Shown here: positions 29,475 through 54,283 of the stretch, in pieces
How positions within the stretch are numbered: the stretch's first letter is position 1
Layout of the letters: each line of letters starts with the position of its first letter
Origin: an uncultured Thermoplasmatales archaeon
GTDB taxonomy: Archaea > Thermoplasmatota > E2 > UBA202 > DSCA01
Assembly (NCBI GenBank): GCA_964514975.1
Contig: CAZESS010000010.1
Coordinates: 1 to 64,000 of the forward strand
Length of the DNA: 64,000 nucleotides
Direction of reading: 5' to 3'
The notes under the pieces: model-generated
What the model saw: only the letters and a program-made list of their open reading frames with translations
Databases searched by the model: none
Told to the model about the DNA's origin: nothing
Made by a program: the position numbers and the translations under genes

Positions 29475-29525
29475 CGTCTTTGTACGGCATGGAAGTCGCT
29501 GAGGCGGCGGGCGCGGGGCGGATGC

Positions 29526-29903
29526 TTATTCCAGCAGCATGAGGTTGTCAATGCACCGGAAATGTCGCGTGTTGAAGGTATACAGGATTGCGTTTCTGTT
29601 CACTGCGATGGCGGCGATCATGGCATCGATCCTGGATGTCATGTTTCCCGCCTGTTCACATGCCAGTTCAAGCTGCGCGGACAGCCTGGCATCCTCGCTC
29701 CGAAATGGGAGGACGTCCATCTGTTGCAGCTCGTCGGGCACCGTTTTTGCATATTTATGCAATCCATAGCGTATCTCGTGGAGCGTGAGCGCGGTGATGG
29801 CGACAGCGTCGTCGGCGTGGATGATTTTTTGTAACGCCTGCTCTCCTTTCTCTGATTTTTTGTCCAGTATCTCTATCAGGACGCTGGTATCGAGAATGAT
29901 CAT
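29526..29903 (-). CDS. vapC: VapC-family PIN toxin
   Basis: 'IILDTSVLI', 'T.HE', 'DAMIAA', 'TFNTRHF'. Confidence 0.92.
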   Translation of the reverse strand: MIILDTSVLIEILDKKSEKGEQALQKIIHADDAVAITALTLHEIRYGLHKYAKTVPDELQQMDVLPFRSEDARLSAQLELACEQAGNMTSRIDAMIAAIAVNRNAILYTFNTRHFRCIDNLMLLE

Positions 29904-30118
29904 GCGTGGTACCGTTTTTCTTTCCGCTTTTCACGTATCTCCCGGGTCATGGCGTCCTTGTCTTCGAAGGTAACGGAGCCCCGCATTTTTTTGAGGAGGG
30001 CGACATTGCGACAGCTGCTCAGCTTGTTCAGCAGGTCGCTGAAGCTCTCGCTGTCTTCCTTCAGCGCGACGAGCTTGTTGTACACGTCCTCCTTGATGGT
30101 TAGCGTCTTAAACGGCAT
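29900..30118 (-). CDS. vapB: Antitoxin VapB (DUF217-like)
   Basis: 'KTLTIKEDVYNKL..LK...ESFSDL'. Confidence 0.88.
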   Translation of the reverse strand: MPFKTLTIKEDVYNKLVALKEDSESFSDLLNKLSSCRNVALLKKMRGSVTFEDKDAMTREIREKRKEKRYHA

Positions 30119-30127
30119 CACCCATAT

Positions 30128-30141
30128 TATGTTTAAACATA
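30128..30141. promoter_or_regulatory. Palindrome TATGTTTAAACATA, putative vapB operator
   Basis: Perfect 14-bp palindrome about 10 bp upstream of the vapB start. Confidence 0.55.
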
Positions 30142-30257
30142 TATTTAAATGTTATGTGTCCTTGGGTAAATGTCTCCTCGGTATCATCCGCGGCCAGCAG
30201 CATGGCTAAGATATGAAAAAGCCACATTCGATATGAAGGAGATGATAGCCCTGCCAC

Positions 30258-30398
30258 TCAGGGCTGGCTATTGTTATAGGTGGTGTCCACTGCCTCTTTA
30301 AAGCCATGGAAATCACTGGGGCGGTGACTGATGATGCTGATACATCGTGCCATGTCCTCCAGTTTGAGGGGCACCCTGTTTTCGTCTCGCTCATCCAT
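30258..30398 (-). pseudogene. Truncated HepT/DUF86-like toxin (N-terminus only)
   Basis: 'MDERDENRVPLKLEDMARCI...RPSDF..F' directly after an MNT gene; no RxxxxH motif remains. Confidence 0.5.
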
Positions 30399-30808
30399 CG
30401 TATCGCCGCAAGCCTTCATAATATATGCCCAGCCGAGGTTTAAAATCCTCGTACTCCCTGATCGTCTGCAGAAAAATGTTGAATGTTTCCACATAGTCTT
30501 TCTGGTAGAGGACATCCCACATGGGATATGATGTCTTTTCTCACATGCAGCGGGAGATCCTGGAAGACATGGATGTCATATGCATCGCCGAGGGAGCCCG
30601 AGGCCTTCATCCTGAACTGGAATCGTTCTTCAGCCGGGCCATGATAGTACACGGCGATATCTATGTCGGATAGCGGCGTCTGCCGCTCCTCCACCCGGGA
30701 CCCATACAGGATGACGAACCGGACGCCGTCACCACCAATCCGGCATATGTGGTCAACCACGGCATCCAGACCCTGACGATGATGTATATCTTCAATCCCC
30801 GGTCTCAT
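30391..30808 (-). pseudogene. Minimal nucleotidyltransferase (MntA-like) with a 1-nt frameshift near 30519
   Basis: 'LYGS', 'SDIDIAV', 'D.HVFQDLPL'. Removing one base restores 'GDVLYQKDY...EYEDFKPRL' to TGA 30391. Confidence 0.8.
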
Positions 30809-30969
30809 TTAAACTCTTCTGTTTTTGTGGCGGTCCTCCTCTTCCAGTACCTTTTTAAAATCGTACCGCAATTGGGCGGGACGATAAAAGCCCGGGGTGC
30901 CAGCATTGGTAATCGTGATGCAGACCATCACCGAAATATGGTGGCGTTAACCAACTGTTGGCTCCGCCG

Positions 30970-31335
30970 TCATTCGATGGGGAGCTGCTTTATCCGTATT
31001 CTTCCTTCTTCAACGATTACGATCGACCCGCTTTCCAACGCTGTTTTGATACGAGGGATGACATTGGCAAGTATCTCGTTGACGTGGTCAGGAGTCGGAT
31101 TGGTAAGCCGGAGGATAATGATGGAGGGCTTTGTAGCCCTGAAATAGGCGAGTATCTCTCCAAAATCAAGGTTCATCGTTATGATAACCATGTCTTCACG
31201 GAGGGCATAGGCAAATATTTCTTTGTCCGCAGCCGTCTGCATATTGAGTTTGTCAACCCGGATAGCTTCATAGCCCTGCTGATGTAAAAACGCCTCCGTT
31301 TTTGGAGACACTGGCATGTCGAGAAGAAAATTCAT
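30970..31335 (-). CDS. DUF5615 family PIN-like protein (VapC45-like)
   Basis: 'FLLDM.VS', 'D.EI..YA', 'IIT.NLDFG', 'RI..LPI'. Confidence 0.88.
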   Translation of the reverse strand: MNFLLDMPVSPKTEAFLHQQGYEAIRVDKLNMQTAADKEIFAYALREDMVIITMNLDFGEILAYFRATKPSIIILRLTNPTPDHVNEILANVIPRIKTALESGSIVIVEEGRIRIKQLPIE

Positions 31336-31559
31336 GTGACCGTCGGCAATGTATGTTCGGAGGTCATCCAGGCGGCAAATTCGAGCGCCTGCTGGATGTC
31401 TTCTTTTTCCAGTTCGGGATAGTCATCCATGATGCTGTCGACTGTTTTCCCCGATGCCACCAGTTTGACGATAAGGGACACGGGTATCCTCATCTCTCGG
31501 ATGCAGGGCTGGCCGCCCAGCACATCTGGATGAATCGTAATCCGGGTGAACGTCTCCAT
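31332..31559 (-). CDS. DUF433 domain protein (antitoxin)
   Basis: 'RITI.P.V.GGQPCIR.MRIPV', 'DYP.L..EDI..AL.FAA'. Confidence 0.92.
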   Translation of the reverse strand: METFTRITIHPDVLGGQPCIREMRIPVSLIVKLVASGKTVDSIMDDYPELEKEDIQQALEFAAWMTSEHTLPTVT

Positions 31560-31778
31560 GTTAAAACAACGAGTCGTTTATTAAAATAGTTTTCCCAGTC
31601 CGTCAGCAGCTTTTTTCCATATATATTTAAAAGCACATGCTATTCATGGGGGCTATGAGGGCGGGGTGTCGGCATGCTTCTTCCCGGATATGGGCGTATG
31701 GCGAGGGTTGGACAGCAACGGTAGATGAATGCAGGAAATACCAAAATAGAAATATGGACGCTTTATTCATCTTATATC

Positions 31779-39204: not shown

Positions 39205-40761
39205 TTATACTGGTTCCTCTACCTCAGCTTCCTGTTCTCCCGTGTGGAATATCGGCTCGTAGCCCTCGATGTCTTTTTCACCCGGCTTGTACACTTCGAG
39301 GACGCCGGTGTCCTTCTTTTCGCCGCTCCACCAGGTTTTCGGCAAAATGGTATGTGATTTTTCGTCGATACGTTTTTGTATCTCGGGGATGGTAAGAAGA
39401 TCGAACATCCGGGTGATTTCTTCTTCAAGGCTGACCCTGGGCTGGAAGCCAAATTCCTGTGGAAGCTTCGTCGAGACGACTTCGAAGGGATGCTTGTCGG
39501 CTTCCACCCGCGGGTTTTCCAGCCGCTGGATGGATACGTCAAGGTCGAATGCGTCGTTTCCGACGACGGCAACGGTTTCCGCCAGTCGCTTTATCTTGTG
39601 GAGTCCCGACACCTGGTTGACCACGTCGTATTGCCCGGGCTCCGGCGGCGACGAGATAAGGCGAACCATGCATTCCATGGCGTCCTCCAGAGCGATGAAT
39701 CCCCGTATCTGCTCGCCCTCCCCGTAGATGGTGAGCGGGATGCCCTGGATGGCCTGCGCCACGAAGCGGTTGACAACGGTGCCGAACCATTCGTCGATAT
39801 CCAGCCGGGTGCGCAGGCGGGGGTCCGCCGCCAGTTCATCGGTGTGCACACCATAGATGACGCCCTGCATGATGTCGTAGGAGCGGAGCCACCAGTATTT
39901 ACATGCCTCGTAGACGTTGAAGGTGTCCTGCACCTTGCTGACATGGTAGAAGCTGACCGGGTCACGGGGGGTGACCTCGCCGCCCATGCTCCATTCACGT
40001 CCATCCCATCTGAGGACCGCGTCGGAGGGAAAAAGGCCTTCGAACAGCGGCCGGCCGGTGAGGGGGCTTCCATATTCTCCCATGGTCCCGAGCTTGATGA
40101 GAGATGTCTCGGGTACGACATCCTTCATAATCCAGAGGAGACCAAGGGTGCCCAGCGTGTTGTTATCCTGGGTCTCGATGGCATGTTCGGCGTCCACCAG
40201 CGAGTAGGGTGCAGAGGGAATCTCCGCGTAGTGAACGATTGACTCCGGCTTCACTTCTTCGATGAACTCTCGAAGCTTTTTCCGGTCCCGGATGTCCATC
40301 CGGCGGAAGTTGATATCGATATCAAGGGCCTCTTTCGCCGCATGCAATCGCTCGGTCATCTTTTCGATGGGAACGATGGTGTGAGCGCCTTTCTCCATGA
40401 CGCAGTCACGGCGGGTGTAATTGTCAATACCGCTGACCTTGCAGCCCAGGACTCCCAGCTTCAACGCGAGCGTCCATCCAAGGTAGCCGTCCAGGCCGAG
40501 AATCATAACCCGCATGTCCCTCAGCATGTAAACATTATATTGTTCCTTGAACTCCCATTCCGGGCACTGTTCAAAGGTGATAGACGGCTCGAAATGTCCC
40601 AGCTCGGGCCGTCGCTTGCATTCTATCATAATCTGGCCTTCAGGGCCCATCTGCTTCTTTATTTCTTCCTTCGACTGCCCGCAGGCCCGAAAATCGACGT
40701 TTCCCTTGAATATGGCCGCCGGACAGTTCCAGCATGTCTTATCCGCATTATGTGGCTTCAT
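39205..40761 (-). CDS. sqdB: UDP-sulfoquinovose synthase (SqdB/Agl3) with an 82-aa Cys-rich N-terminal extension
   Basis: 'ILGLDGYLGW', 'DNYTRR', 'PSAPYS', 'KLGTMGEYG', 'SFYHVSK', 'FGTVVNRF', 'NPRVE'. Confidence 0.9.
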   Translation of the reverse strand: MKPHNADKTCWNCPAAIFKGNVDFRACGQSKEEIKKQMGPEGQIMIECKRRPELGHFEPSITFEQCPEWEFKEQYNVYMLRDMRVMILGLDGYLGWTLALKLGVLGCKVSGIDNYTRRDCVMEKGAHTIVPIEKMTERLHAAKEALDIDINFRRMDIRDRKKLREFIEEVKPESIVHYAEIPSAPYSLVDAEHAIETQDNNTLGTLGLLWIMKDVVPETSLIKLGTMGEYGSPLTGRPLFEGLFPSDAVLRWDGREWSMGGEVTPRDPVSFYHVSKVQDTFNVYEACKYWWLRSYDIMQGVIYGVHTDELAADPRLRTRLDIDEWFGTVVNRFVAQAIQGIPLTIYGEGEQIRGFIALEDAMECMVRLISSPPEPGQYDVVNQVSGLHKIKRLAETVAVVGNDAFDLDVSIQRLENPRVEADKHPFEVVSTKLPQEFGFQPRVSLEEEITRMFDLLTIPEIQKRIDEKSHTILPKTWWSGEKKDTGVLEVYKPGEKDIEGYEPIFHTGEQEAEVEEPV

Positions 40762-42059
40762 AGTGGTTCACCCTGTACATGATGTAAGATTGAGGTGACG
40801 TCCTCAACATGGGGATATGATGAGACTATTTTACTGTTTTCCCTTCCCTTAACATAAAGAAACGCGTCATCCTGCGTGTGCATGCCCACGATGGTGTCAT
40901 CCGTCTCGAAAAGGGAACGCTGTCGCATGCTCCCGCTCAGGCTGAACCCGGAATGCGGGAGCAGCACCATGTCTGGCGCCCGGTCAGTATGGTCGCCATG
41001 GTAGAGGTCTTTTTTTGTATATACCTTTTTGATGACCGGCTCGCCGTCTTTTTCCAGCTGGTAGAAGAGCTCCGTGAGCTCCTCAACGACCTGTTCTTCC
41101 TCGTCCTCCGTGACGGAGCCCCGGGGATACGTGTCTTTTTTGTTGAAATATACACGGGAAGGGTCCAGGGCAAATGCCTTCGTACCCCTTTCTATGTTGT
41201 TGTATTTTCTGTCCGGCTGGTCGCCCCAGTTGAGGTAGCCTTCGCTGGCGAGATACGTGTTGAGGTGGACGCTGGACTGGATGCGCTCCATGCCGTGGTC
41301 GGAGAGCATGAGGAGCGCGTCGTTGTCATGCATCCGGTTGTTGATTTCGCCGATGGCGTCGTCGACTCGCTTGAAGTATTCGAGGAATTGCTCGTGGTGT
41401 TTGTGGTCGGGGTCTTCGTAGGCGTCCCAGAGGAAATGTTCCAGGCGGTCGGAACCGGTGAACACGAGCATGAACGTGTCCCAGTCCATCGTGTTCCACA
41501 GCCTGCGGGAGAGCTGCATCCGTTTTTCGTGAACCCGGAAGAGGTCTTTGAGGAACAGCTCGGTTGACTTGTATGCTTTTTTGCTGTCGACGTCGACCCG
41601 GTAGCCCATGTCCTGCAATGTCTGCACAGATGATGGCGGATAGACGGCTTTTTGGAGGTCGAGGGACACGAAGCCGGAGACCCAGAAGCCGTTTATCTCT
41701 CTGACCGGATAGGTGGCGGGCACGTTGATGATGACATATGTTTTGTCATGCTGCTGCCAGAACGCCGGCTGCTGGATGTTACGATAGTTGGGAAATGACA
41801 TGGTGTAGGTGCCGGGTATCAGGTCGGTGAAACCGTAGATGCCGTGTTCCCCGGGATTTTTGCCGGTGATGATGGAGCTCCATGACACGGACGATATCTC
41901 GGGGATGGAGGACTCCATGGCGGTGAACACGCCGTCTCTGCGGAGCTCCCGGAAGTGTGGCATCACGCCATGGTCTGATAAATCCTCGAGAAGCCGGTAG
42001 GGGACACCATCGATACCGATGATGACCAGTCGTCCGTTGTTTTCTTTCTCGCTACCCAT
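40758..42059 (-). CDS. Alkaline phosphatase superfamily protein (type I phosphodiesterase/nucleotide pyrophosphatase)
   Basis: 'IIGIDG', 'S.VSW.S..TG.NPG.HGI.GF', 'DR..H', 'SDHG', 'G.H'. Confidence 0.88.
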   Translation of the reverse strand: MGSEKENNGRLVIIGIDGVPYRLLEDLSDHGVMPHFRELRRDGVFTAMESSIPEISSVSWSSIITGKNPGEHGIYGFTDLIPGTYTMSFPNYRNIQQPAFWQQHDKTYVIINVPATYPVREINGFWVSGFVSLDLQKAVYPPSSVQTLQDMGYRVDVDSKKAYKSTELFLKDLFRVHEKRMQLSRRLWNTMDWDTFMLVFTGSDRLEHFLWDAYEDPDHKHHEQFLEYFKRVDDAIGEINNRMHDNDALLMLSDHGMERIQSSVHLNTYLASEGYLNWGDQPDRKYNNIERGTKAFALDPSRVYFNKKDTYPRGSVTEDEEEQVVEELTELFYQLEKDGEPVIKKVYTKKDLYHGDHTDRAPDMVLLPHSGFSLSGSMRQRSLFETDDTIVGMHTQDDAFLYVKGRENSKIVSSYPHVEDVTSILHHVQGEPL

Positions 42060-42251: not shown

Positions 42252-43766
42252 ATGATAGCCCGGAAGTCGGCGTTGATTATCGCTGTGCAGGCCGCCAACG
42301 GCATCCTGGGCTACATCGGGCTGAAGTTTATCGCCCTGTATATGGACCCCTGGCAGTACGGCGTCGTGGGCTTTGCCTACGGGCTGGTGAGCGTCCTCTC
42401 GATTGTCGGAAGGCTCGGGTTCGACCGGGCGCACATCAAGCGGGTGTCGGAGGGACGAGACCTGGGCACCTGTATCGCCACCTTTGCGTCCTCCAAGCTG
42501 GGGTTGGCCGGCGTGATGTCCGCCGTGTTGATGGTCGGGGTCGTGGCGTGGAAATATGTCCTCGGCCGGGGTTTCGAGTCGGTGGTACACCAGCAGGCGA
42601 TGTATGTGATGCTGGCCTATTTTTTCCTTTTTACGCTGAGCCGGATATTTGTTTCCACGTTTAACGCCCGGAAGGAAACCGCGAAGGCGATGCTGCCCAT
42701 GTTCGCCTATCAGATAGGGCGGATCGGGGCCACGGTGTATGTCGCCCTGTCCGGGCTCGGGGCCCTCGCGCTCGCCTATACATATATTGTCGGGGAGATA
42801 TTCGAGGTGGCTCTCGCCTGGTATTTTGCCCGGCGGTATCCGGTGGGGAAACCCACGGCGTCGATGGCGAAGAGCTACATCTCGTTCGCGATGCCCATGG
42901 CCGTGGTGGTGGCCTCGTCGATTCTCATGCGGAACATCGACAAGGTGTTCATCCAGCTTTTTATGTACGCGGAGGACGTGGGCCGGTATTTCGCGATCAG
43001 CAACCTCTCCCGGTTCATCATCCTGTTTGTCTCCGCGGTGGGCACGCTTATCTTCCCCACCATCTCGGAGCATCATGCACGGAAAAACATGCGGGAGATA
43101 GAGCGGCTGACCCTTGTCTCCGAGCGATATCTGAGCATGATGGTGTTCCCCCTGGTGATGCTGATGGTGGTGCTGGCGGAGCCCATCATCCGGGTTTTGC
43201 TGAGCAACAAGTATCTGCCCGCGCTGACGGTGCTGCAGATCATGCCGTTTTTCGTGCTGATCGAGGCATTGTCGAAGCCATATGACACGCAGCTGTCCGG
43301 CATGAACCTGCCCCGGCTGACCAAGAACAGGGTGATCATCATGGCGGCGAGCAACGTGGCGTTGAACCTGGTGCTCATTCCACCGGACATTAAAAGTATT
43401 GGATTGAAAACGGCGGGGCTGGGCGTGGAGGGAGCAGCGGTGGCCACCGTGGCCGCCTACGCTATCGGGCTGCTGTATATCCGGTTTGTGGCATGGCGGA
43501 TGACGGGCATCAAAGCCAATCCGCGTATCGTGCTGCACGCGATTGCGGCCGGAGGGATGGCGCTGCTGCTCTGGTATGTGAACCAGATGGCCCATTTTGG
43601 CCGATGGTATGAGCTTCTGGGAGCGGGTTTGTTCGGTCTTGGGGTATATGTCGGCCTGCTGGTTTTGATGCGGGAGTTCACCCGTGAGGACTTCGACCTG
43701 TTCATGGACACCCTGAACGTGAAAAAGATGCTCGCCTATGTCAGGGACGAGATACGGAGAGAGTAG
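42252..43766 (+). CDS. Oligosaccharide flippase (Wzx/MOP family)
   Basis: Many TM helices; 'IDK..I', 'VG.Y', 'IFP.IS', 'N..LN.VLIP', 'G..GAAVAT'. Confidence 0.9.
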   Translation: MIARKSALIIAVQAANGILGYIGLKFIALYMDPWQYGVVGFAYGLVSVLSIVGRLGFDRAHIKRVSEGRDLGTCIATFASSKLGLAGVMSAVLMVGVVAWKYVLGRGFESVVHQQAMYVMLAYFFLFTLSRIFVSTFNARKETAKAMLPMFAYQIGRIGATVYVALSGLGALALAYTYIVGEIFEVALAWYFARRYPVGKPTASMAKSYISFAMPMAVVVASSILMRNIDKVFIQLFMYAEDVGRYFAISNLSRFIILFVSAVGTLIFPTISEHHARKNMREIERLTLVSERYLSMMVFPLVMLMVVLAEPIIRVLLSNKYLPALTVLQIMPFFVLIEALSKPYDTQLSGMNLPRLTKNRVIIMAASNVALNLVLIPPDIKSIGLKTAGLGVEGAAVATVAAYAIGLLYIRFVAWRMTGIKANPRIVLHAIAAGGMALLLWYVNQMAHFGRWYELLGAGLFGLGVYVGLLVLMREFTREDFDLFMDTLNVKKMLAYVRDEIRRE

Positions 43767-43868: not shown

Positions 43869-44843
43869 GTGCATGTCGCAGTGATTGGAACCGGCAGGGT
43901 CGGACGGTATACGGTGATGCTGCTGGCGAGCGAACGCTGGATAGACCGGCTGACGCTGGTTGATGTAAAGCCGGGCCTGGCACGGGCGGTGGCGGAGGAG
44001 GTCAGGCATGCCCTGGCCAGCATCCGGAATCCCATCGAGGTGGATTCGTTCCAGGACAGCATGGCGGTACAGGACGCCGACATCGTCCTGGTTACGGCGG
44101 GAACGCCGCGGACGCCTGACATGAAGGAGCGGACGAATCTGACGTCGCGGAACGCCGCCATCATCCGGGATATCGCGGAGGTCGTGGCTCCCGCTAACCC
44201 GGATGCCAGGTATGTGATTGTGACCAACCCGGTGGACGCCATGGCCACCCTGTTCAAAGAGATATCGGAGGCACGATGGGTCATCAGCACGGGAACGAAT
44301 CTGGAAAGCCAGCGATTTCGAGCCGAGCTCGCGAAACAGTTGGACATCCCTATCTCTGCGGTGCAGGGGTTCGTGGGCGGGGAACACGGCCAAAGAGCGG
44401 TGTTTTTGTGGTCGACGGTAAAAATAGGGGGATTGCCCCTGGAAAAATACACGGATATGACAGGAAAAACCATCGACAAATCTATGATAGAGAAATCAGT
44501 GAAAGAGATATCACGGCACATCATCAAGGCGAGCGGCGGCACCAGACATGGGCCGGCAACTTCTTTTAGGGATATTGTACGGTCTGTAGCAGTGGACGAG
44601 AACCGGGTGCTGTCGGTTGCCACCCCGTATGAACTCCGGGATGGGTCCGGGGAGGTCATGGTTGGCAGACCACAGATGGTCGGCAAATATCTCGGATACA
44701 CGCTGGAAGACGATTTGACCCCGGGCGAACGAGACAGCATTGAAACGGCGGCACAACGAATCCATGAAACATATACAAAAATATACAAAAGCCAAATCAG
44801 CCCTGGAACCATGAGGGATGGCAGGCAGCCGACCAATGAATAG
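43869..44843 (+). CDS. LDH/MDH-family 2-hydroxyacid dehydrogenase (MDH-like)
   Basis: 'VIGTGRVG', 'AGTPR.P', 'VTNPVD', 'GTNLESQR', 'GEHG'. Confidence 0.88.
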   Translation: MHVAVIGTGRVGRYTVMLLASERWIDRLTLVDVKPGLARAVAEEVRHALASIRNPIEVDSFQDSMAVQDADIVLVTAGTPRTPDMKERTNLTSRNAAIIRDIAEVVAPANPDARYVIVTNPVDAMATLFKEISEARWVISTGTNLESQRFRAELAKQLDIPISAVQGFVGGEHGQRAVFLWSTVKIGGLPLEKYTDMTGKTIDKSMIEKSVKEISRHIIKASGGTRHGPATSFRDIVRSVAVDENRVLSVATPYELRDGSGEVMVGRPQMVGKYLGYTLEDDLTPGERDSIETAAQRIHETYTKIYKSQISPGTMRDGRQPTNE

Positions 44844-45810: not shown

Positions 45811-46130
45811 AAGGTTTTTTCTGAGCTGTCAAACTGATAAAATAAGTGTCATTGCAGCAATAATATTTGTAATACTCTCTTGCAAGGTGATAATATGATT
45901 TTGCCTTTTTCCAGACGGTTTTTACCACTGAGCATTAACTGTCGAATCACAGGTGTTTTTCCCCGCCTTTTAGTACGGTAGCCTTTACGGCAAGGTACTC
46001 AGGATGCGGCAATAGCCTCCAACTCTAGGCATCAATATGGTCACTTTTCCAGAAAGGACTTAGATTTAATCCTTCCACCCCTAAACCAGAAATAAGATTT
46101 TCGCTTGATGTCCGGAAGTGTACTGTCCGG

Positions 46131-46547
46131 AAGCATGATGCGCTGGCTATCGATGAGACCATGGTAAGGATCGACGGTGAATGATGGATTGTCTGGGCTG
46201 CCATCGATATGGAGCGATGGGACATCTTGGCCGTCTGAATCACCCAGGCCCGGTCATCTCTTGAAGCATACAGCTTCATTAAGCATGCCCTCCGGAAATG
46301 CACAAATGAGCCAACCATCTATGTGGACAGATGTCCGTGGTATAAGCCGGCGCTGGAACGCCTCAGCATAACATGGGAGCGTAGGACGTTTGGCCCGCAG
46401 AATCCCATCGAGCAATGGTTCGGCATACTGAAGCACCGGGTCAAACGGTTCTATGTCCGCTGACCGTATAACGCCGGGCGCGACACCGCCCAGCAGTGAA
46501 TCGCCGCCTTTGTGACGCTCTACAACATCAGGAAGTGCCTAAGTTGA
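46131..46547 (+). mobile_element. IS6-family transposase remnant (3' half), inactivated
   Basis: One frame reads 'LAIDETMVRI...WIVWAAID...YVDRCPWY..AL...TFG..NPIEQWF..LKHR.KRF'. In-frame TGA at 46182, 46236, 46461 and 46497. Ends CTAAGTTGA, as archaeal IS6 transposase genes often do. Confidence 0.85.
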
Positions 46548-46734
46548 TATCTACAAAGATGGGACAAAAAAGAGATTAAAAATGGCAGTTGACTATGAAT
46601 CTATAATATCTTTTTATGAAAAATAAATCCGATATATTTTTAACCTAATTCCTTTTTATTCTTGGCGTGATAACATAACAACTCACGAATATTTAAAAGA
46701 AAATAAACAAATAGAAAGGTCACTTAAAAATTCC

Positions 46735-47400
46735 GTGGTGTTTCATGTAGGTCTTTCTAAAACGGGTTCTTCATTTTTGCAAAATTGCGTTTTCCCAGAA
46801 ATTGACGTTAATCTAATCAAGCAATTCAAATTACATTCATCTATCGACGGAAAATATGATATCACACTTGTTTCTGATGAAACTTTATCCAATGACTGTC
46901 TGTGGTTCAACTGTGCTCCCCGCAATGTCGTGGCAAAACGGATACACGATCTTTTCCCGAGGGCATCAATAATTATTGTCACTAGAGATAAAGATGATTT
47001 TGCACGGTCTATGTGGAGAGAATATGTAGAGTGGGGCGGTGATAAGTCTTACCAAGCCTGGCGTAATGACATGAAACAATGTAACCCGGATGTTTTTTCT
47101 TTCGGCAAATACGTGGATTTATTAAATTATCTTTTTGAAAGAGTTCTCGTTTTGGAGTTTAGCACACTAAAAGACGACGTCGAATATTTTATTAGTGAAA
47201 TCTGTGACTTTATCGGCGTTCCAATACCAGATTATGAAAACAGGATTGTAAATAAGTCACTTGATAAGAAGGCAGCAAAAAGATGGCAACGTTTCAACCG
47301 TTTTTTTAGCTCGCACTGGAGTAAGGGGAGGCTACCCATGTATTCTAATCCCCTATATTGGATGCGTCAAATGAGAAAACGATTAGGCGTGCAATTATGA
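46735..47400 (+). CDS. Sulfotransferase-family protein
   Basis: PAPS-binding-like 'FHVGLSKTGSSFLQ', 'VSDE.LS', 'IIIV.R......S', 'IC.FIG', 'N.S'. Low GC. Confidence 0.75.
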   Translation: MVFHVGLSKTGSSFLQNCVFPEIDVNLIKQFKLHSSIDGKYDITLVSDETLSNDCLWFNCAPRNVVAKRIHDLFPRASIIIVTRDKDDFARSMWREYVEWGGDKSYQAWRNDMKQCNPDVFSFGKYVDLLNYLFERVLVLEFSTLKDDVEYFISEICDFIGVPIPDYENRIVNKSLDKKAAKRWQRFNRFFSSHWSKGRLPMYSNPLYWMRQMRKRLGVQL

Positions 47401-47503
47401 AAAAGGCAGCATCTGCCAACACTCAAATACGACGTCACTTAATAATACATGATATGTTTTTTTGTATTTATTTATGTCAGCTTTATCTCGATTAAATAAT
47501 AAC

Positions 47504-48112
47504 CTAGATTTTGCCGCGCGGGTTTATTAACTTTTGATAAAAAAAATCGTACATTTTTCTCGGCATTTTCTTAACATATTTTGGATATTTTAAAGATATA
47601 ATTGAGTTTGTTCGCAGATATTGAATAAAGTTTCTTGGGTCTCTACTAGGATGCTCCATATGCTTCACTGCACTTACTGGAAATTTTATAAGTTCATACC
47701 CCATTTTCTGGAGTCGATAGCTGAATTCTACATCTTCAGAAAAAAGCATCATGGGATCAAATCCACCCACCTTAAAAAAGTCCTTCCTCGTAATGGATAG
47801 AACCCTGCCTATCAAATAATCATGCCATCTACTTTTAAGACCAGCTACACTATGCTCACTGACTGCAAACGTTAACTTTTTGAAAAATATCTTTGAAAAT
47901 TTTATATCGTCATCCATAAACACTAAAACATTCCCAGATGCTTTCATTGCCCCAATATTTCTGGCGACAGAAAGACCGTTGATGGATTCATTGTCGGTTT
48001 TCCAATCAGAAATAATTACTTCTACATCGTCGGGAACAGATTTAAGCGTTGCCGGCTCCTCTGAGAGGGTAGGAATGACTACGGTAACATCTTTTTCCAT
48101 ATTTTCTCGCAT
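47504..48112 (-). CDS. GT2 glycosyltransferase (short)
   Basis: 'VVIPT', 'ARNIGA', 'FMDDD', 'GGFD', 'EDVEF.YR'. Low GC. Confidence 0.85.
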   Translation of the reverse strand: MRENMEKDVTVVIPTLSEEPATLKSVPDDVEVIISDWKTDNESINGLSVARNIGAMKASGNVLVFMDDDIKFSKIFFKKLTFAVSEHSVAGLKSRWHDYLIGRVLSITRKDFFKVGGFDPMMLFSEDVEFSYRLQKMGYELIKFPVSAVKHMEHPSRDPRNFIQYLRTNSIISLKYPKYVKKMPRKMYDFFYQKLINPRGKI

Positions 48113-48174
48113 TAAACTCAACCACTTATTTAATTTCTTCTAAACATCAATAGGTATTTAAATACCCATGGAAT

Positions 48175-49131
48175 ATGAGCTCGTCTGTTATGGGAGATAC
48201 GAAGCAACATCAGAGTGTTACCATCGTTGTCAATGTTTACAACGCTGCCGATATCATCGACGACTTTATGGGTTCGCTTACAGAACAAACATTTACAGAT
48301 TTTCATCTGTTGGTCATCGACGATGGGTCGACCGACCACACCATACAAAAAATCGAAAAATACAACGAGCAGATAGACATATCCATTCACCGGCGCTCCC
48401 ACCAGGGCATCAAAAAAGCCCGAGCCTACGGCGTCCAGCAGGCATCCGGAGACATCATCATAATCCTCGACGCCGATCTCATCCTCGATTGCCACGCCAT
48501 CGAAGAACTTGTCAGGCCGCTGGAAACCGACACCGTCGGCGCAGTCGGAGGAACACTCAAAGGAAAAGGAGACACCACAACAAGCAAAGCCTATGGATTC
48601 CTCCGAGAACTCTTCTACAGCCTTCGAGCAAAAGGACAACAGGCCGACTGGCTAACCGGAGGATTCGCTGCATTCAAACAAGAGGTGATAAAAAAAGCGG
48701 GTGGATTTTCAACCGAACAGCTTTCCGGCGACCTCGACATATCCTGGAAGATAAAAAAGCAGGGCTACAGGCTCGTGCTCAACCAGGATGCGGTCGCATA
48801 TCACCGCGACCCCGAAACCCTCCAAGAGATATGGAACCGAGAAAAAAACATCGGCCAGCGGGAATACCATCTCACCAAAAAACATCCCAAAGAAGCGATG
48901 AAACCCCGCAGGCTATTCCGGTTCTACCCGATGCTGCTGCCCGTCGCCATACTCCTCACATTTCTCTCATGGCCGCTCGTCGCCACGATAATAGCAATAT
49001 CATACCTTGCAACTCTCATAGCAGTGAAAGGCACGTTCAAAGTCCGGAGTATCGCCTGGCTGGTGTTCAACGTGATGAACGCTGCCTACTGCACAGGATT
49101 CCTCTCCACCATGCTCATCAATAAAAAATAG
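48175..49131 (+). CDS. GT2 glycosyltransferase with C-terminal TM helices
   Basis: 'DDGSTD', 'LDAD', 'GGF', 'DLD.S', hydrophobic C-terminus. Confidence 0.88.
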   Translation: MSSSVMGDTKQHQSVTIVVNVYNAADIIDDFMGSLTEQTFTDFHLLVIDDGSTDHTIQKIEKYNEQIDISIHRRSHQGIKKARAYGVQQASGDIIIILDADLILDCHAIEELVRPLETDTVGAVGGTLKGKGDTTTSKAYGFLRELFYSLRAKGQQADWLTGGFAAFKQEVIKKAGGFSTEQLSGDLDISWKIKKQGYRLVLNQDAVAYHRDPETLQEIWNREKNIGQREYHLTKKHPKEAMKPRRLFRFYPMLLPVAILLTFLSWPLVATIIAISYLATLIAVKGTFKVRSIAWLVFNVMNAAYCTGFLSTMLINKK

Positions 49132-49265: not shown

Positions 49266-50885
49266 TTATAAGTCCGTGTACTCATCTCTCATTTTCTGCA
49301 GCCAGTAGGAGAGCACGAACAGCAGATAGAAAAAATAGCCATGCCTGCCGCCGGACACCCGCTCCGCCAGTGCATCCACGTTGTCAGCGATGCCTGCAGC
49401 CTCAATGTGGTCGACCATAAACCGATGCAGCCGTGGCTCCTTCGCGATCACCCCGCCAACCTGCTCGACCGTCTGGCTGCCCGGACAGAGCTTTTTTTTG
49501 ATTTCCTGCACATACTTTGTCATAACCTGAAGCCGCCGTGGCGCATTCAATGGAAAGGCATACCGGGTCGTCAGTATCTTATACTCGGGAGACATCTTCT
49601 GCAGCAATGAATAATACAGCTTATTGTTGACCCTGTCGTTTCGCTGCATGCAGCTGAAATAAAAATCATAGTCCAAGAATGGGAACAACCGTTCCGGAGG
49701 CGCCCTAGAAAACTTGAACATGTGCCGGCGTCGCTCTCGCATAAACATGTGATATGCCTCTATGTCCACATGCTCGAAGGGGACGGGCACCGCCGTCAGT
49801 TTTTCATATACCTCTGGGACCAGGTACCGCTGGAGAGCACCTCCTGGTATTTTGGTCCGCACCCTGTCGAGCAGAGAACGTGAAACAGAGCGAAAAGGGA
49901 TGCCGAACAGGATGGTCAGATAATACCGTTTATCCCGGAGCAGCAAAAATTCCCCCGAGACAGGAGGGGCAAACCCGCCGCTGAGCCTGACATTGAATCC
50001 CGGTGCGGTCGTCTTGGATACCTCAGGTTTTCGTATATCAAACGGATTTTGTGTGTCAAAAAGTTGTTGCACCTGTTCTTTGGACCGTGCCGTCTGGCTC
50101 CTGAGTATACGATGTTGTTTTATGTCCAGGTTGCTCGTCAGCTCTTTCGCCAGCCGGACATCCTCCCGTTGCGCCGCATCAGGCTGCTCAGGACACCCAG
50201 TTATGGCGGTCAGCTCCTGCTTGTTCGGCCAGTGAAACAGCACAAAGCGGGAATCAATGCCGCCCGACAGGTTGAGGGCATACTCGATCTCATCCGTGTA
50301 CAGCCGCTGGCATCCCCGCCGAAAAAGCTCCTCGACATCCCGGGAGATGGTGACATTTTGTGGCGTATACGACCGCACCTCTACCGACGGCCGTTTCATA
50401 TCATAGGCCACAATGGCGTGTGGCGACAGCACCCTGATATACCGGTCCTGAGTTTCATATCGCAAAAAGTTGCCATATTTGAGATACTGGGAGAGGGCAT
50501 ACCAGTCGATCTCCCGGAAAGGCAGATTGAGAATGTTTGAGGAAAACTGAAACGGCTCACAGGTGGTATAATAAAATGGTAGCTGACCGAAATAGTCGTT
50601 GGCCACGTAGAGCTTTTCCCTGTTTTTGTCATGGACAAGCAGGTTGAACTTGCCCGTCCTGATCTTCTCGACGAAGCGGATGCCATGTTTTTTGTACATC
50701 ATGTGCAGCCTGTGCAGGGTTTCCTGCCGCAGGCTTTCGCCGATGTCGTCCTCAAGGACGAGGTAGCCGTCAACCGCGATGACAACGTCGCTGGTTTCAT
50801 AGATGTCGTCAAAAAAAACCTGGTTCAGGTTGACCGTGAGCTCGCCGTCAACAAAATGAAAGCCAATGTCATCTATATCTTCCAT
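49266..50885 (-). CDS. Asparagine synthetase-like (AsnB-type) ATP-dependent amide ligase lacking the N-terminal catalytic Cys
   Basis: 'NDYFGQLPFYY', PP-loop 'LSGGIDSR', 'PFLD'. The N-terminus is MEDI, not MCGI. Confidence 0.75.
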   Translation of the reverse strand: MEDIDDIGFHFVDGELTVNLNQVFFDDIYETSDVVIAVDGYLVLEDDIGESLRQETLHRLHMMYKKHGIRFVEKIRTGKFNLLVHDKNREKLYVANDYFGQLPFYYTTCEPFQFSSNILNLPFREIDWYALSQYLKYGNFLRYETQDRYIRVLSPHAIVAYDMKRPSVEVRSYTPQNVTISRDVEELFRRGCQRLYTDEIEYALNLSGGIDSRFVLFHWPNKQELTAITGCPEQPDAAQREDVRLAKELTSNLDIKQHRILRSQTARSKEQVQQLFDTQNPFDIRKPEVSKTTAPGFNVRLSGGFAPPVSGEFLLLRDKRYYLTILFGIPFRSVSRSLLDRVRTKIPGGALQRYLVPEVYEKLTAVPVPFEHVDIEAYHMFMRERRRHMFKFSRAPPERLFPFLDYDFYFSCMQRNDRVNNKLYYSLLQKMSPEYKILTTRYAFPLNAPRRLQVMTKYVQEIKKKLCPGSQTVEQVGGVIAKEPRLHRFMVDHIEAAGIADNVDALAERVSGGRHGYFFYLLFVLSYWLQKMRDEYTDL

Positions 50886-51046
50886 GGTATAATCCTGCAG
50901 CTAGGGGCAACATGCCCGGTTTTTTTAAATAATTTGTTGTTTTGTAGCGCCGGCTTCCCATATACCTTAAATATTGCGGCCTCATTGCACTGGGTGCAGA
51001 CACACCTTTCGATAGTGCTCTGCATATGCATCATTGAAGTGGTAGC

Positions 51047-52372
51047 ATGAAATACAGGGTCAGATGTCTCAACTGCGGAAAAACATATGGCGAAGACGAA
51101 TACGTGACCAGGTGCACAAACGGCTGCGACGCGATGCTGCGCACCGAATACGAGCAAAAACAGATTGAGTCCGTCGACGAATATCCAGGGCTCTGGCAGT
51201 ACATCAACTGGCTGCCCGTCAACTCTGTCGACAGCCGCATCCTCGAGCACAGCAGCACCTTCCACACATACCGGAGCGAAAAGCTGGCCGACCATCTCGG
51301 CCTGGACAACCTCGTCATCTGCCTCAACGCGTTTCGCCCCGGACACCGGGCGAGCATGAAAACCGCCACGTTCAAGGACATCGAAGCCGAGCTGTCATTC
51401 CAGCGCATCCAGACCACAAAAGACCATGGCAAACCATTCATTCTTTCCTCAGCGGGCAACACCGGCACCGCGTTCATATATTATTCTAATATCGTTAAAT
51501 ATCCAATCGTGCTAACAGCCACTGAGGAGGCCCGTCGAAATCGAATCTGGTCATACCGGAAGTCAAACCCATATGTGACCATGATAACCATGCAAGACCG
51601 TTGCGATTACTGTGACGCAATAAGCCTTGCCCGTGAACTCGGGAGCAGCGGATATTTCGTAGCAGAAGGCGGCGCCCGCAACGTCGCCCGTAGAGACGGG
51701 ATGGGCACTATCATGCTCGATGCCACCAGGATGCTCGGCCGGATGCCCGACCACTATTTCCAGGCGCTTGGCTCCGGGCCGGGAGCCATCGCCGCCTACG
51801 AGGCATCGCTCCGCCTGCAACGGGACGGCCGCTACGGCGACAGGCTGCCAAGGATCCATGGCGCACAAAACGCCCCGTTCGCGCCGATGTATGACGCCTG
51901 GCATGCCGGAACAAGGTGCATCGACACCAAATACCAGTGCGAGGCGGCCAAAAACCTGATACGGCAGGTGCACGCCCACGTGCTCACCAACCGCCATCCA
52001 GCCTACGACGTCAAAGGCGGCGTGTACGACGCGCTCTCCGCCACCAACGGCGAGTTCTACTGCATATCCAACGAGGAGGCACGGCGGGCGCAGCAGCTGT
52101 TCAAACGGCTGGAGGGCTGCAGCATCGTGCCCGCCGCCGGCGTCACCGTGGCCTCCCTCATCCAAGCGGTGGAAAACGAGCTCGTTGACCCCGACGACAC
52201 GGTTTTGCTCAACATCACCGGCGGCGGCAGACAGGAAATGGAGATGAAAAAGTTTAAAGTAACGCCCTCCATTACCCTCACACGGAACTATGACCCTGAA
52301 CAGGTCCTGCACGAGGTTTTATCATGCAACAAAAAATTGAGCGCGCAAAAGAACTCATACGAGAGGGAATAG
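51047..52372 (+). CDS. Cysteate synthase (threonine synthase-like PLP enzyme)
   Basis: 'T.TFKD.EA', 'SAGNT..AF', 'EGGARNVARRDGMGT', 'PDHYFQA.GSG.G.IA', 'VL.NR.P.Y', 'LLNITGGG'; these match the methanogen cysteate synthase family. Confidence 0.88.
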   Translation: MKYRVRCLNCGKTYGEDEYVTRCTNGCDAMLRTEYEQKQIESVDEYPGLWQYINWLPVNSVDSRILEHSSTFHTYRSEKLADHLGLDNLVICLNAFRPGHRASMKTATFKDIEAELSFQRIQTTKDHGKPFILSSAGNTGTAFIYYSNIVKYPIVLTATEEARRNRIWSYRKSNPYVTMITMQDRCDYCDAISLARELGSSGYFVAEGGARNVARRDGMGTIMLDATRMLGRMPDHYFQALGSGPGAIAAYEASLRLQRDGRYGDRLPRIHGAQNAPFAPMYDAWHAGTRCIDTKYQCEAAKNLIRQVHAHVLTNRHPAYDVKGGVYDALSATNGEFYCISNEEARRAQQLFKRLEGCSIVPAAGVTVASLIQAVENELVDPDDTVLLNITGGGRQEMEMKKFKVTPSITLTRNYDPEQVLHEVLSCNKKLSAQKNSYERE

Positions 52373-53100
52373 AAACATATGGAGACCGGGTGGCCGTCGG
52401 CTGCAGCTGGGGAAAAGACAGCATGGCCCTGCTGCATCTCGCCCTGGAGGTCGACCCGGACGTACCGGTGTTTTCGATTTTGACGGTACACAAGCCGGAT
52501 GAAACATATGAATATGCCAAAAAGGTATGCGAAAAATACGACCTCGACCCGCATATCTACATGGTGGCAGACGAGGTCCCCGAAGCAATCGAAGGGATGA
52601 ACGTCACGCTGCTCCCGATGGATGAATACAAAAAAGAGGCGATGCGGATAAAAACCGAGAGCGGGCGCGACATCTACTACGAGGACCCCGACCTGTGCTG
52701 CCAGCTGCTCAAGGTCGTGCCCACCCGACATGCATACAAGGACATGGACCTGCGGGCATGGTTCAGCGGGCTGCGGAACACCGAGGGGCACACCAGGACG
52801 TTCCTGGACGAAAAAGAAAAACGGAGCGACAAAGAAGTAAAAATTAATCCCATACTTGGCTGGTGGGAAAACGAGGTGTGGCGATACCTGGAGGAAAACG
52901 ACATCCCCATCCATCCATGGTACGACAAAAAGTTCGAAAACGGCAAAAAAATCCGCTCGCTCGGCTGCGCACCCTGCACCGTCCCCGTCCATGAATATGA
53001 GGCAGAGCGAGCCGGACGATGGAGAGGAACAAACAAAAAAGCCGGGGAATGCGGCATCCACACGCAGCCGCTCAGAAAACTGAAAAAAGACGAAGTCTAA
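52324..53100 (+). CDS. cysH: Assimilatory APS/PAPS reductase, Fe-S (APS) type
   Basis: 'SWGKDS', 'CC..LKV.P', 'K.NPI..W', 'SLGCAPCT', 'R.GRW', 'ECGIH'. Confidence 0.88.
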   Translation: MQQKIERAKELIREGIETYGDRVAVGCSWGKDSMALLHLALEVDPDVPVFSILTVHKPDETYEYAKKVCEKYDLDPHIYMVADEVPEAIEGMNVTLLPMDEYKKEAMRIKTESGRDIYYEDPDLCCQLLKVVPTRHAYKDMDLRAWFSGLRNTEGHTRTFLDEKEKRSDKEVKINPILGWWENEVWRYLEENDIPIHPWYDKKFENGKKIRSLGCAPCTVPVHEYEAERAGRWRGTNKKAGECGIHTQPLRKLKKDEV

Positions 53101-53117: not shown

Positions 53118-54125
53118 TTACCATATCCGCCGCCGGAGCAGCGCATAGAGCACCCCATACGCATATGACACATGGACGCCGGGGAGCAAAAGCAGCGCAT
53201 ACAAAAACAGCCGGACATCGTGGTAGCCATGGGCCAGCCGAACCGATTCCAGCGCAATGGCCATCGCATAGGCCACGCCGCCAAGAAACAGCAGCACGAC
53301 GAGCCAGTCGAGAATGCCGAACACGGTGAAGAGCACTACGGCGGTAAGCAGACCTACAAGCCCGTAGGCGGGCCAGAGATAGATGTGGCTGAGCAGGCCC
53401 TGCAGGCCATGTTTTTTGACGATCGCGACCTTGGCCTTCGCCCATTTGTATATCTGCCTGGCGAAATGACGGATGTGCTGCTTACGGTAATGCACAACCC
53501 TGACCCGGGACGAGTACAGCAGCCGATGGCCGGCACGGCGTATCCGATGGTTGAGCTCCAGGTCCTGTCCCTTCACAAACGCCTCGTCGAACAGGCCCAC
53601 CTCCATCACAATGCTGCGGCGGAGCGCCAGGTTGCAGGTCGGGATGTGGTCGACATAGCTCGTCCCCCGTTCCATGGTATGCTGCGTCGACGGGTTGAAC
53701 TGGCCGCCCCGCGCCAGCGGCGACGTCATCACCCGGCCGACCGCCTTGGATTTGTAGATGCTGTCCCCGGGGAGCAGGTCGGGGCCGCCGACGCCTGCAA
53801 CGTCGTGCTCCATAAAAAGACGGCTGATCTGGCTGAGCCAGTCATCATAGGGAACCGCGTCGCCGTCAACAAACGCGACGATGTCGCCCTGCGCTGTCTC
53901 GATGCCCCGGTTGCGGCCCGCCGCCGCGTTCTCCAGGGGATTGCGCAGCAGCCGAAAGTCATGCACCTCCTGCAACTCCTCGAGCAGCTCATAGGTGCCG
54001 TCGGTGCTCATCCCGTCGATCACGATGACCTCGTAGTCCTCATAATCCTGCCGGGACAGCCCCTCGATACATTTCTGGATGTGCGGGCGTTCGTCTTTGA
54101 CTGCCACGACGACTGAAATGAGCAC
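53118..54125 (-). CDS. GT2 glycosyltransferase (ExoA-like) with C-terminal TM helices
   Basis: 'DGMSTDGT', 'GRN.G', 'FVDGD', 'GLFDE', 'QDLELN.R'. GTG start at 54125. Confidence 0.9.
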   Translation of the reverse strand: MLISVVVAVKDERPHIQKCIEGLSRQDYEDYEVIVIDGMSTDGTYELLEELQEVHDFRLLRNPLENAAAGRNRGIETAQGDIVAFVDGDAVPYDDWLSQISRLFMEHDVAGVGGPDLLPGDSIYKSKAVGRVMTSPLARGGQFNPSTQHTMERGTSYVDHIPTCNLALRRSIVMEVGLFDEAFVKGQDLELNHRIRRAGHRLLYSSRVRVVHYRKQHIRHFARQIYKWAKAKVAIVKKHGLQGLLSHIYLWPAYGLVGLLTAVVLFTVFGILDWLVVLLFLGGVAYAMAIALESVRLAHGYHDVRLFLYALLLLPGVHVSYAYGVLYALLRRRIW

Positions 54126-54237
54126 AGGAAGAATTATGCCAGCGTTAATAAACGTTCTCCTGTTCACCGGCCGCTGCGAATCAGGCGGCTGGAATGATGC
54201 CGGGTGGCGGCGTCCGATGGACGGCATATCGTAAAAC

Positions 54238-54283
54238 ATGTTTAACGATATAACGAAAGATTATTAAATATGTTTAACGATAT
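54238..54283 (+). repeat. 14-bp direct repeat ATGTTTAACGATAT (54238, 54270) in the promoter of the AAA/DUF4143 gene
   Basis: Exact duplication flanking a TATA-like TTATTAAATA. Confidence 0.6.

Follow-up and report, generated by a model that had tools for sequence, protein, structure and literature searches.

What is a cysteate synthase (CS) doing in an uncultured Thermoplasmatales archaeon, in an island of glycan genes and beside an AsnB-like protein that lacks its glutaminase Cys? The enzyme is usually treated as part of coenzyme M biosynthesis and, in bacteria, of sulfonolipid synthesis. Here, gene placement suggests that cysteate is built into surface sugars. Our best reading, which we advance tentatively and rate a little short of even, is that this member of the Thermoplasmata, not a methanogen, carries a sulfate-to-cysteate module in its surface-glycan island, and that the cysteate serves the surface glycan, where the Cys-less ligase probably joins it to a uronic acid through an amide bond.

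Within the window (the whole 64,000-nucleotide stretch analysed), the AsnB-like gene (P0001, 49266-50885, minus strand) is followed by the CS gene (P0002, 51047-52372, plus), a CysH-type reductase gene (P0003, 52324-53100, plus) and a GT2 glycosyltransferase gene (53118-54239, minus; Pfam GT2, 92.1 bits). All coordinates in the original prediction hold, as do the 49-bp overlap of the CS and CysH genes (52324-52372, with the CysH ATG visible at 52324) and the divergent layout, whose gap, given as about 160 bp, measures 161 bp (50886-51046, no strand). This intergenic region contains two A/T-rich TATA-like boxes (around 50920-50935 and 50966-50975), both kept in the congener locus L009 (genome G003), for which we predict a promoter function. 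Special conservation of the region, suggested by an aligner's 'mean column identity 89%', was rejected: by direct count the window and L009 agree in 124 of 163 intergenic columns (159 of 203 overall), no higher than in coding DNA and inside the 66-86% nucleotide identity spanned by the genes on either side. Because L009 has the same four-gene order, with a CS/CysH overlap of 46 bp, and because many close CS relatives are CS-CysH fusions (670-675 aa) with the same domain order as the window genes, we consider the layout to be more than chance.

The PLP enzyme is a cysteate synthase rather than a threonine synthase, as had been proposed: its 441-residue product scores 449.6 bits with TIGR03844, above the curated equivalog cut-off of 324.9, whereas the best threonine synthase model reaches 69.7 bits against a cut-off of 303. 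F109-K110, part of an F-K-D/E motif, is invariant in 13 family sequences, and K110 is presumably the PLP-binding Lys of a fold-type II PLP site. By family membership, the enzyme would convert O-phospho-L-serine and sulfite to L-cysteate. It is encoded by the sole such gene in the genome; a separate ThrC-like gene is present (257.3 bits against a cut-off of 266), and the genome's ThrC-like genes gave no tblastn match to the CS query at 1e-3. The suggested phylogenetic comparison with methanogen cysteate synthases, run as a quick, midpoint-rooted tree without a ThrC-like outgroup, placed the gene in a separate 31-row clade (SH-aLRT 99) that includes forms linked or fused to CysH and leaves the methanogen and ANME sequences outside. 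P0003 (258 aa) likewise proved to be a sulfonucleotide (APS/PAPS) reductase, matching PAPS_reduct (PF01507, 138.8 bits) and scoring above cut-off with NF002537 (167.5 bits against 154). It carries CC (LCCQLL) and CxxC (GCAPCT) motifs and a C-terminal ECGIH, an instance of the ECG(I/L)H motif that we take to hold the C-terminal Cys of sulfonucleotide reductases; alongside the CC and CxxC cysteines, which in the APS-specific (Fe-S) subclass serve the cluster, the APS_reductase model TIGR02055 gives 128.1 bits against a cut-off of 235.3. That these two genes form a cysteate module is the part of our reading in which we have high confidence.

Profile searches of the host genome, which is 98.9% complete, returned no match for McrA (PF02249) or the sulfopyruvate decarboxylase ComD (TIGR03845), with controls matching, nor for sulfite reductase (NIR_SIR); the locus therefore belongs neither to coenzyme M synthesis nor to sulfur assimilation. 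The non-coenzyme M role that had been predicted thus stood; its novelty for the enzyme family did not, given bacterial sulfonolipid synthesis (available portion of PMC11211663). Lacking ComD and McrA, the genome yielded no other cysteate consumer. Sat, APS kinase and UDP-sugar 6-dehydrogenase genes are present, the last on a different contig from the island. A taurine route was set aside: no decarboxylase for it was found in the island, and the genome's only phosphatidylserine-decarboxylase-type gene lies outside, on contig C23.

P0001 (539 aa) is an AsnB-superfamily PP-loop adenylating enzyme that matches GATase_7 at 31.3 bits and the glutamine-dependent asparagine synthetase B model TIGR01536 at 48.4 bits, against a cut-off of 267.1. 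The PP-loop LSGGIDSR noted originally occupies residues 206-213, with SGGxDSR invariant across the family alignment (A1), and the loss of the glutaminase Cys extends to the whole family: none of 14 aligned members has an N-terminal Cys. The original prediction had allowed that the true start might expose one; P0001 has no Met-Cys start, and since its open frame (544 aa) reaches only five codons further upstream, no alternative start can do so. The N-terminus instead carries a six-residue extension and an Ile at the Cys position, and hhalign pairs N74/G75/E76 of E. coli AsnB with D39/G40/Y41, so that the Gln-site residues N74 and E76 are replaced as well. An AF2 model (pLDDT 82.8) predicts an AsnB-superfamily fold, with an Ntn-type N-domain and a PP-loop ATP-pyrophosphatase domain, and its top Foldseek matches are beta-lactam synthetase, carbapenam synthetase, TsnB9 and AsnB (E ≤ 1e-12; 542-630 alignment columns, roughly full length). 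Such a ligase is absent from 38 of 41 relatives and the window's genome has no canonical AsnB, which together argue that P0001 is not a housekeeping enzyme. Enzymes of the AsnB type first activate a carboxylate by adenylation and only afterwards take up an amine, and we propose that P0001 is an amide ligase acting on a glycan carboxylate. An ESM Atlas search with the ligase retrieved generic AsnB-like clusters only. A comparison of the CS-linked ligases (P0001, P0004 and P0005) with the nine other core members was uninformative about a sulfonate pocket: the 18 columns that separate the two sets reflect composition (K to Q/D/N/R and I to V) and show no new basic site.

The surrounding island has a GC content of 0.40-0.54, against 0.61-0.65, and encodes a Wzx-type polysaccharide flippase (42252-43766, plus; Polysacc_synt_3, 82.9 bits), another GT2 glycosyltransferase, whose gene converges on that of the AsnB-like protein (48175-49131, plus; Glycos_transf_2, 97.5 bits), and GlmS, GlmU-like and phosphoglucosamine-mutase-type genes. 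A UDP-sulfoquinovose-synthase-like SDR (39205-40761, minus) matches NF041015 over profile positions 1-383 of 384 at 403.9 bits, below the equivalog cut-off of 575, and is a potential second sulfite user; supplying sulfite both to it and to CS would be compatible roles. A short sulfotransferase-like ORF (46735-47400, plus; 221 aa) matches only positions 88-194 of 255 in Sulfotransfer_1 (35 bits) and may be truncated. The congener's island contains transposases. Two further candidates were dismissed. The MDH/LDH gene at 43869-44843, considered as a sulfolactate dehydrogenase, is probably a housekeeping enzyme, since tblastn against the whole genome found no second copy; and the low-GC stretch at 26.6-31.7 kb, considered as an rRNA operon or repeat array, contains only small ORFs and no tandem repeats, with Rfam reporting one tRNA in the whole window.

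The ligase family is tiny, and outside this genus its genes lie directly behind a GT2 gene, usually after a UDP-sugar 6-dehydrogenase, and without CS: in the four such loci (L010, L043, L044 and L045) GT2 is directly upstream in all four and a UDP-sugar dehydrogenase upstream in three. This setting strengthens the original link of AsnB-like proteins in glycan loci to sugar carboxylates. Orthologues of the window's GT2 at 53118-54239 (60-76% identity) immediately precede the AsnB-like gene in L010/L003 and L043, while in L009 the orthologue borders the cassette; they occur in 10 of 41 relatives, and in G008, G017 and G028 they do so without the ligase. Because GT2 and the ligase adjoin without CS outside the genus, CS-CysH looks like a cassette inserted between them. 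Adjacency of CS and the ligase is one evolutionary event, seen in a single genus only (the window, L009 and, probably, a metagenome contig of 8783 bp). Of the non-CS ligase loci, only one comes from a whole genome, G016 (95% completeness); that genome has no CS at E ≤ 1e-30, and its ligase gene is frameshifted. CS itself scores above cut-off in 66 of 401 genomes of the phylum, and McrA is absent from the one genome tested in each of families f4, f31 and f42. In the distant and apparently non-methanogenic family f31, whose sole McrA-tested genome (G241) lacks it, all 12 of 12 CS loci include GT4 and a flippase, and 7 of the 12 include a UDP-sugar dehydrogenase; we saw no ligase candidate in these CS blocks. 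In class relatives (f4) the surroundings of CS-CysH are not glycan genes; its neighbours there are a PaaK-like ligase and a gene of the phosphatidylserine-decarboxylase type.

We propose the following pathway. Sulfate would be activated by Sat and APS kinase, whose genes lie outside this locus, and reduced by the CysH-type enzyme to sulfite, which the translationally coupled CS would combine with O-phosphoserine to give L-cysteate. The ligase would most likely adenylate a hexuronic acid, supplied to the glycan by GT2, at its C-6 carboxylate, and pass the activated uronate to an amine that does not come from glutamine. In this genus cysteate would most plausibly provide that amine through its alpha-amino group, and the product would be a sulfonated glycan bearing N-(uronoyl)cysteate. 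Our confidence differs by step: action of the ligase on a glycan uronate is somewhat better than an even bet, incorporation of cysteate into the glycan falls modestly below even, and the prediction that cysteate is the amine used by P0001 is doubtful. The existence of ligase family members without CS calls for caution on this last step, and ammonia or another amino acid would account for the ligase just as well.

In favour of the preferred reading we count the CS and CysH identities, the conserved overlap and the fusions, the lack of another obvious sulfite fate, the ligase fold with its lost glutaminase site, the GT2 and UDP-sugar dehydrogenase context of a non-housekeeping ligase, the island content, the independent f31 lineage and the published precedents. 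Against it we count the one-genus adjacency, ligase loci without CS, GT2 orthologues without the ligase, the non-glycan contexts in f4, f31 blocks without a ligase candidate, the compositional nature of the subgroup residues and the placement of the UDP-sugar dehydrogenase on another contig. In a rival account the two units are neighbours without being partners: the ligase would couple free ammonia or an everyday amino acid (Thr, Ala, Gly or Ser) to a uronic acid, just as in genomes without CS, and CS-CysH would have landed in a variable low-GC island to make cysteate for another glycan decoration or a soluble sulfonate. C-6-amidated uronic acids, plain or with threonine, are known in archaeal N-glycans (PMC11407970). 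Four ligase loci without adjacent CS, a genome (G016) without any, the transposases and low GC, and the f4 contexts all fit this account, which we regard as quite possible, if appreciably short of even; yet the cassette sits exactly between two genes that form an overlapping operon elsewhere, no other cysteate consumer was found, and the only genome known to have the ligase and no CS has a frameshifted ligase.

A reversed polarity, in which cysteate is activated at its alpha-carboxylate and then transferred by the ligase to the nitrogen of an amino sugar to give an N-cysteatoyl hexosamine, would suit the GlmS, GlmU-like and phosphoglucosamine-mutase-type genes of the island as well as the adenylate-then-accept chemistry of the family. 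We think it unlikely: the recurrent partner of the family is UDP-sugar 6-dehydrogenase, which points to a sugar carboxylate, and members without CS would need a different acyl donor. Alternatively, the reductase might mainly feed sulfite to the sulfoquinovose-synthase-like enzyme 11 kb away, leaving CS a side consumer or sulfite sink. The score of that enzyme and the 6-C-sulfo sugar of a Thermoplasma N-glycan (PMC11407970) speak for this arrangement, which is nevertheless quite unlikely as CysH is coupled or fused to CS, and not to the sulfoquinovose-synthase-like gene, across many lineages. The housekeeping pairing of a threonine synthase with an ammonia-dependent asparagine synthetase draws on the missing canonical AsnB and was already disfavoured; with threonine synthase models at no more than 69.7 bits against 449.6 for cysteate synthase, a separate ThrC-like gene, and an AsnB-like gene of sporadic occurrence, low TIGR01536 score and glycan-island setting, it is very improbable.

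Extended beyond this locus, the preferred reading becomes a more speculative proposal, about which we are doubtful: that non-methanogenic Thermoplasmatota make cysteate de novo for surface glycans, that in this genus a new Cys-less AsnB-type family ligates the cysteate amine to a hexuronic acid in an undescribed carboxy-sulfonate decoration, and that two or more other lineages of the phylum follow the same logic with different ligases. Two distant lineages place CS within sets of glycan genes, adjacent to dehydrogenases that form uronic acids or to the partners of such dehydrogenases. Should cysteate prove to be a building block of glycans, archaeal glycobiology would gain a new sulfonated modification, a tiny orphan AsnB-like family would gain a function, the widespread CS-CysH fusions would be explained, and there would be a biological source of organosulfonate where such archaea live. 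Literature searches yielded no cysteate amide.

The nearest known enzyme is the Methanosarcinales-type cysteate synthase of coenzyme M biosynthesis, reportedly described by Graham et al. in 2009. The window's synthase belongs to the same TIGR03844 family above the equivalog cut-off and has its Cys-rich N-terminal segment as well as its invariant FK motif, whereas its host has no McrA or ComD match and its gene falls in the CysH-linked clade. Bacterial synthesis of sulfonolipids (capnine and sulfobacin) also uses the enzyme outside coenzyme M metabolism, starting from phosphoserine via cysteate; according to the available portion of PMC11211663, cysteate is there condensed with an acyl chain, whereas here the setting is an archaeon with glycan genes and no acyltransferase partner was seen. 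For the ligase, the best Foldseek matches are beta-lactam and carbapenam synthetases (1mbz, 1jgt and 1q15; E ~3e-14 to 9e-14), likewise two-domain, Cys-less PP-loop enzymes, although they are only 12-13% identical to P0001, with TM no better than 0.39-0.46; their reaction is an intramolecular ring closure, and no feature of P0001 points to cyclisation. In the accessible part of a preprint (bioRxiv 10.1101/2025.10.30.685158), AsnB homologues whose N-terminus is not Cys tend to be those with amino-acid ligase activity, and one such homologue, PdmN, ligates D-Ala or D-Ser to a polyketide carboxylate. By analogy, P0001, with an AsnB fold and its glutaminase Cys replaced, would be expected to couple a carboxylate to an amino acid supplied from outside, with the likeness confined to the non-Cys N-terminus: its proposed substrate is a sugar acid, and it has the six-residue extension and the Ile. 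Acid-bearing amines in amide linkage to uronic acids have precedents in taurine on GalNAcA of Staphylococcus aureus CP1 (PMC12043029) and threonine on mannuronic acids (ManNAcA derivatives) of Methanococcus N-glycans (PMC11407970), and the chemistry proposed here would be the same, an amide between a C-6 carboxylate and an acid-bearing amine.

The ORF table places three genes exactly where the original prediction had put them, with an AsnB-like ligase (P0001, 539 aa) at 49266-50885 on the minus strand, a PLP enzyme (P0002, 441 aa) at 51047-52372 on the plus strand and a CysH-type reductase (P0003, 258 aa) at 52324-53100, also on the plus strand. The predicted 49-bp overlap between the latter two has the same length in the table, with an ATG present at 52324, and the divergent intergenic region, put at about 160 bp, measures 161 bp. 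Identification of P0002 as a cysteate synthase was also upheld, as it scores 449.6 bits on the TIGR03844 model (cut-off 324.9) and 69.7 bits on the best threonine synthase model, against 303. Residues F109-K110 are unchanged across 13 family sequences, and the host genome carries a separate ThrC-like gene (257.3 bits; cut-off 266). Among 5.8 billion proteins, the nearest cysteate synthase relatives are 52-55% identical and mostly 670-675 aa long, combining PALP and PAPS_reduct domains; in one such fusion, P0186, the synthase spans residues 8-399 and CysH residues 423-670. P0003 itself scores 138.8 bits on PAPS_reduct and 167.5 bits on NF002537 (cut-off 154), and carries CC, CxxC and ECGIH motifs, which we take to mark Fe-S, APS-type sulfonucleotide reductases. 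We nevertheless name it an APS/PAPS reductase, because its score on the APS-specific model is 128.1 bits, under the cut-off of 235.3. A cysteate module comprising cysteate synthase and CysH is well supported.

The proposal that this cysteate synthase serves a role other than coenzyme M synthesis gained support from the host genome (1.96 Mb, 98.9% complete; the window lies on its contig C10). McrA, sulfopyruvate decarboxylase alpha and NIR_SIR sulfite reductase gave zero matches there, with positive matches in control genomes, and so neither an assimilatory nor a coenzyme M fate for sulfite finds a match. ATP sulfurylase and APS kinase genes are adjacent on contig C5. In a quick, midpoint-rooted tree of cysteate synthases, which addresses the methanogen part of the proposed phylogenetic comparison, P0002 groups with CysH-linked forms and one Armatimonadota sequence (clade of 31 rows, support 99); a separate clade of 19 rows contains the McrA-positive families, Methanoperedens and the archaeal family f31 of the same phylum.

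P0001 retains the predicted ATP PP-loop (LSGGIDSR, residues 206-213) and, as predicted, lacks an N-terminal Cys, which is absent from all 14 aligned family members. Core members carry (D/L)-I-G-F-H-Y, with Ile at the canonical Cys position and a few residues preceding it, and two outliers start MSFYG and MIGFYG; because the P0001 frame extends only 5 codons upstream of its ATG, no alternative start exposes a Cys. Sequence models recognize the protein poorly (48.4 bits on TIGR01536, cut-off 267.1; a partial Pfam match within the glutaminase domain). Alignment with hhalign pairs residues 26-288 with residues 61-325 of E. coli AsnB at 94.9% probability, placing D39-G40-Y41 opposite N74-G75-E76, and an AF2 model (pLDDT 82.8) resembles beta-lactam synthetase, carbapenam synthetase, TsnB9 and AsnB along approximately the full protein (E ~1e-13, TM 0.39-0.52). 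The family is tiny: a word-index search found fifteen proteins besides P0001, of which 13 are 43-59% identical to it, and a HMMER scan of 1.84 billion representatives returned 7 at E<=1e-30. Across 401 genomes of the phylum, scores above 600 bits occur only in the host, its congener (G003) and one further genome (G016), and six more genomes give hits of 74-107 bits, which fall in AsnB-like frames of the ordinary kind, 589-666 aa long. Remote relatives commonly start without Cys, as only 27 of the 143 that reach 480 aa or more have M-C-G/S there; many AsnB-like proteins of 580-640 aa (P0024-P0045) instead start MPG(L/I)xG and look like a large, apparently uncharacterized group of Cys-less AsnB homologues. 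Although the host genome has no canonical AsnB, P0001 is not a housekeeping enzyme, since 38 of 41 relatives lack the gene.

The ligase gene keeps company with a GT2 gene, located at 53118-54239 in the window. The congener locus has the same order (GT2, CysH, cysteate synthase, divergent AsnB-like gene; protein identities of 76, 89, 83 and 59%), with a 46-bp synthase/CysH overlap. In G016 (locus L010) and locus L043, a GT2 gene 60-62% identical to that of the window has its end touching or overlapping the AsnB-like start, and a more distant GT2 precedes the ligase in L044 and L045. Three of these loci (that of G016, L043 and L045) also have a UDP-sugar 6-dehydrogenase gene upstream of the ligase (in L044 only 170 nt precede the GT2); that of the host genome is on contig C8. 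A relative 37% identical to P0001 neighbours UDP-GlcNAc 2-epimerase, dehydrogenase and canonical AsnB genes (L046). Neither cysteate synthase nor CysH occurs in any of these five loci, and G016 (95% complete) has no cysteate synthase at E<=1e-30. The ligase gene of G016, a Thermoplasmata MAG, is frameshifted, with two frames split near residue 87-91 (contig C5, about L010:9758-11391); the split marks a pseudogene or, alternatively, an error in assembly. Because orthologues of the window GT2, found in 10 of 41 relatives, sometimes occur without the ligase (G008, G017, G028), the ligase looks like an optional tailoring step following a GT2 that probably adds uronic acid. From these arrangements, the oppositely oriented synthase-CysH pair looks to have been inserted between GT2 and ligase in this genus.

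All of these window genes lie in an island of ~31.7-55.6 kb, with GC as low as 0.40, that also encodes GlmS, a GlmU-like protein, mutases, epimerases, a flippase, GT2s and a short sulfotransferase. Behind a UDP-sulfoquinovose-synthase-like gene at 39205-40761 on the minus strand (518-aa ORF matched from residue 83; 403.9 bits, under the 575 cut-off) comes a member of the type I phosphodiesterase/nucleotide pyrophosphatase family (40758-42059, minus strand), a pair suggesting that the same glycan carries a 6-sulfo sugar. The island's lowest GC (0.40) falls at 46000-48150, where the 221-aa sulfotransferase ORF, matching its profile in part, and a 205-aa minus-strand GT2 fragment may be decayed genes. 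The 5 kb at 26600-31700 have lower GC (0.49-0.54) and small ORFs only (<=160 aa), with no Rfam match and no tandem repeats.

Cysteate synthase also accompanies glycan genes in f31, at 12 loci in four genera (L158-L169). These enzymes are 32-36% identical to P0002, yet score 335-437 bits on TIGR03844, and lie near GT4 (12/12 loci), flippase (12/12), glutaredoxin (9/12) and UDP-sugar dehydrogenase (7/12) genes, without CysH in the block; DegT, acetyltransferase, ABC-2 transporter and heparinase-like genes surround it, with MBOAT in 3 of 12 loci. The f31 loci form one conserved synteny block, independent of the window's lineage, and the genome tested (G241) has no McrA. In f4, a family of the same class, the synthase and CysH are fused or adjacent at 7 of 7 loci (L151-L157, four genera), and McrA is again absent from the genome tested (G149). 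Their partners, each at 6 of 7 loci, are a PaaK/F390-synthetase-like adenylating enzyme (~470 aa, without a Pfam match at 1e-6) and a phosphatidylserine-decarboxylase-type gene. The PaaK-like gene lies near synthase-CysH, divergently adjacent in L151, L152 and L155, and the decarboxylase-type gene follows the pair (for example, L151:8087-12177); at L154, two ATP-grasp genes of the sugar-transfer-associated type and archaellins lie close by. Such a cassette might serve as another system for conjugating cysteate or taurine, a lead only, as three paralogues of the PaaK-like ligase occur elsewhere in the host genome.

Fold, lost nucleophile and neighbours best fit a role for P0001 in forming amides on a glycan uronate independently of glutamine. 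The position of the module in this one genus makes cysteate a candidate for its amine, a reading strengthened by our finding no other cysteate consumer and by the glycan-gene neighbours of the f31 synthases. By calculation, the residue of a hexuronate amidated with cysteate would have a mass of about 327.03 Da. Against this reading, family members occur without cysteate synthase and we found no sequence signature for cysteate. Ammonia or another amino acid is a serious rival. The open-text literature searched yielded no account of a cysteate-bearing glycan, nor of a cysteate synthase gene placed in a glycan locus. A review (PMC11407970) describes a 6-C-sulfo sugar in a Thermoplasma N-glycan and, in methanogen glycans, uronic acids amidated at C-6 either plainly or with threonine, never mentioning taurine. 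A preprint (bioRxiv 10.1101/2025.10.30.685158) links a non-Cys N terminus in AsnB homologues to amino-acid ligase activity, contrasting PdmN, a ligase for D-Ala or D-Ser, with FdmV, a Cys-bearing amidotransferase.
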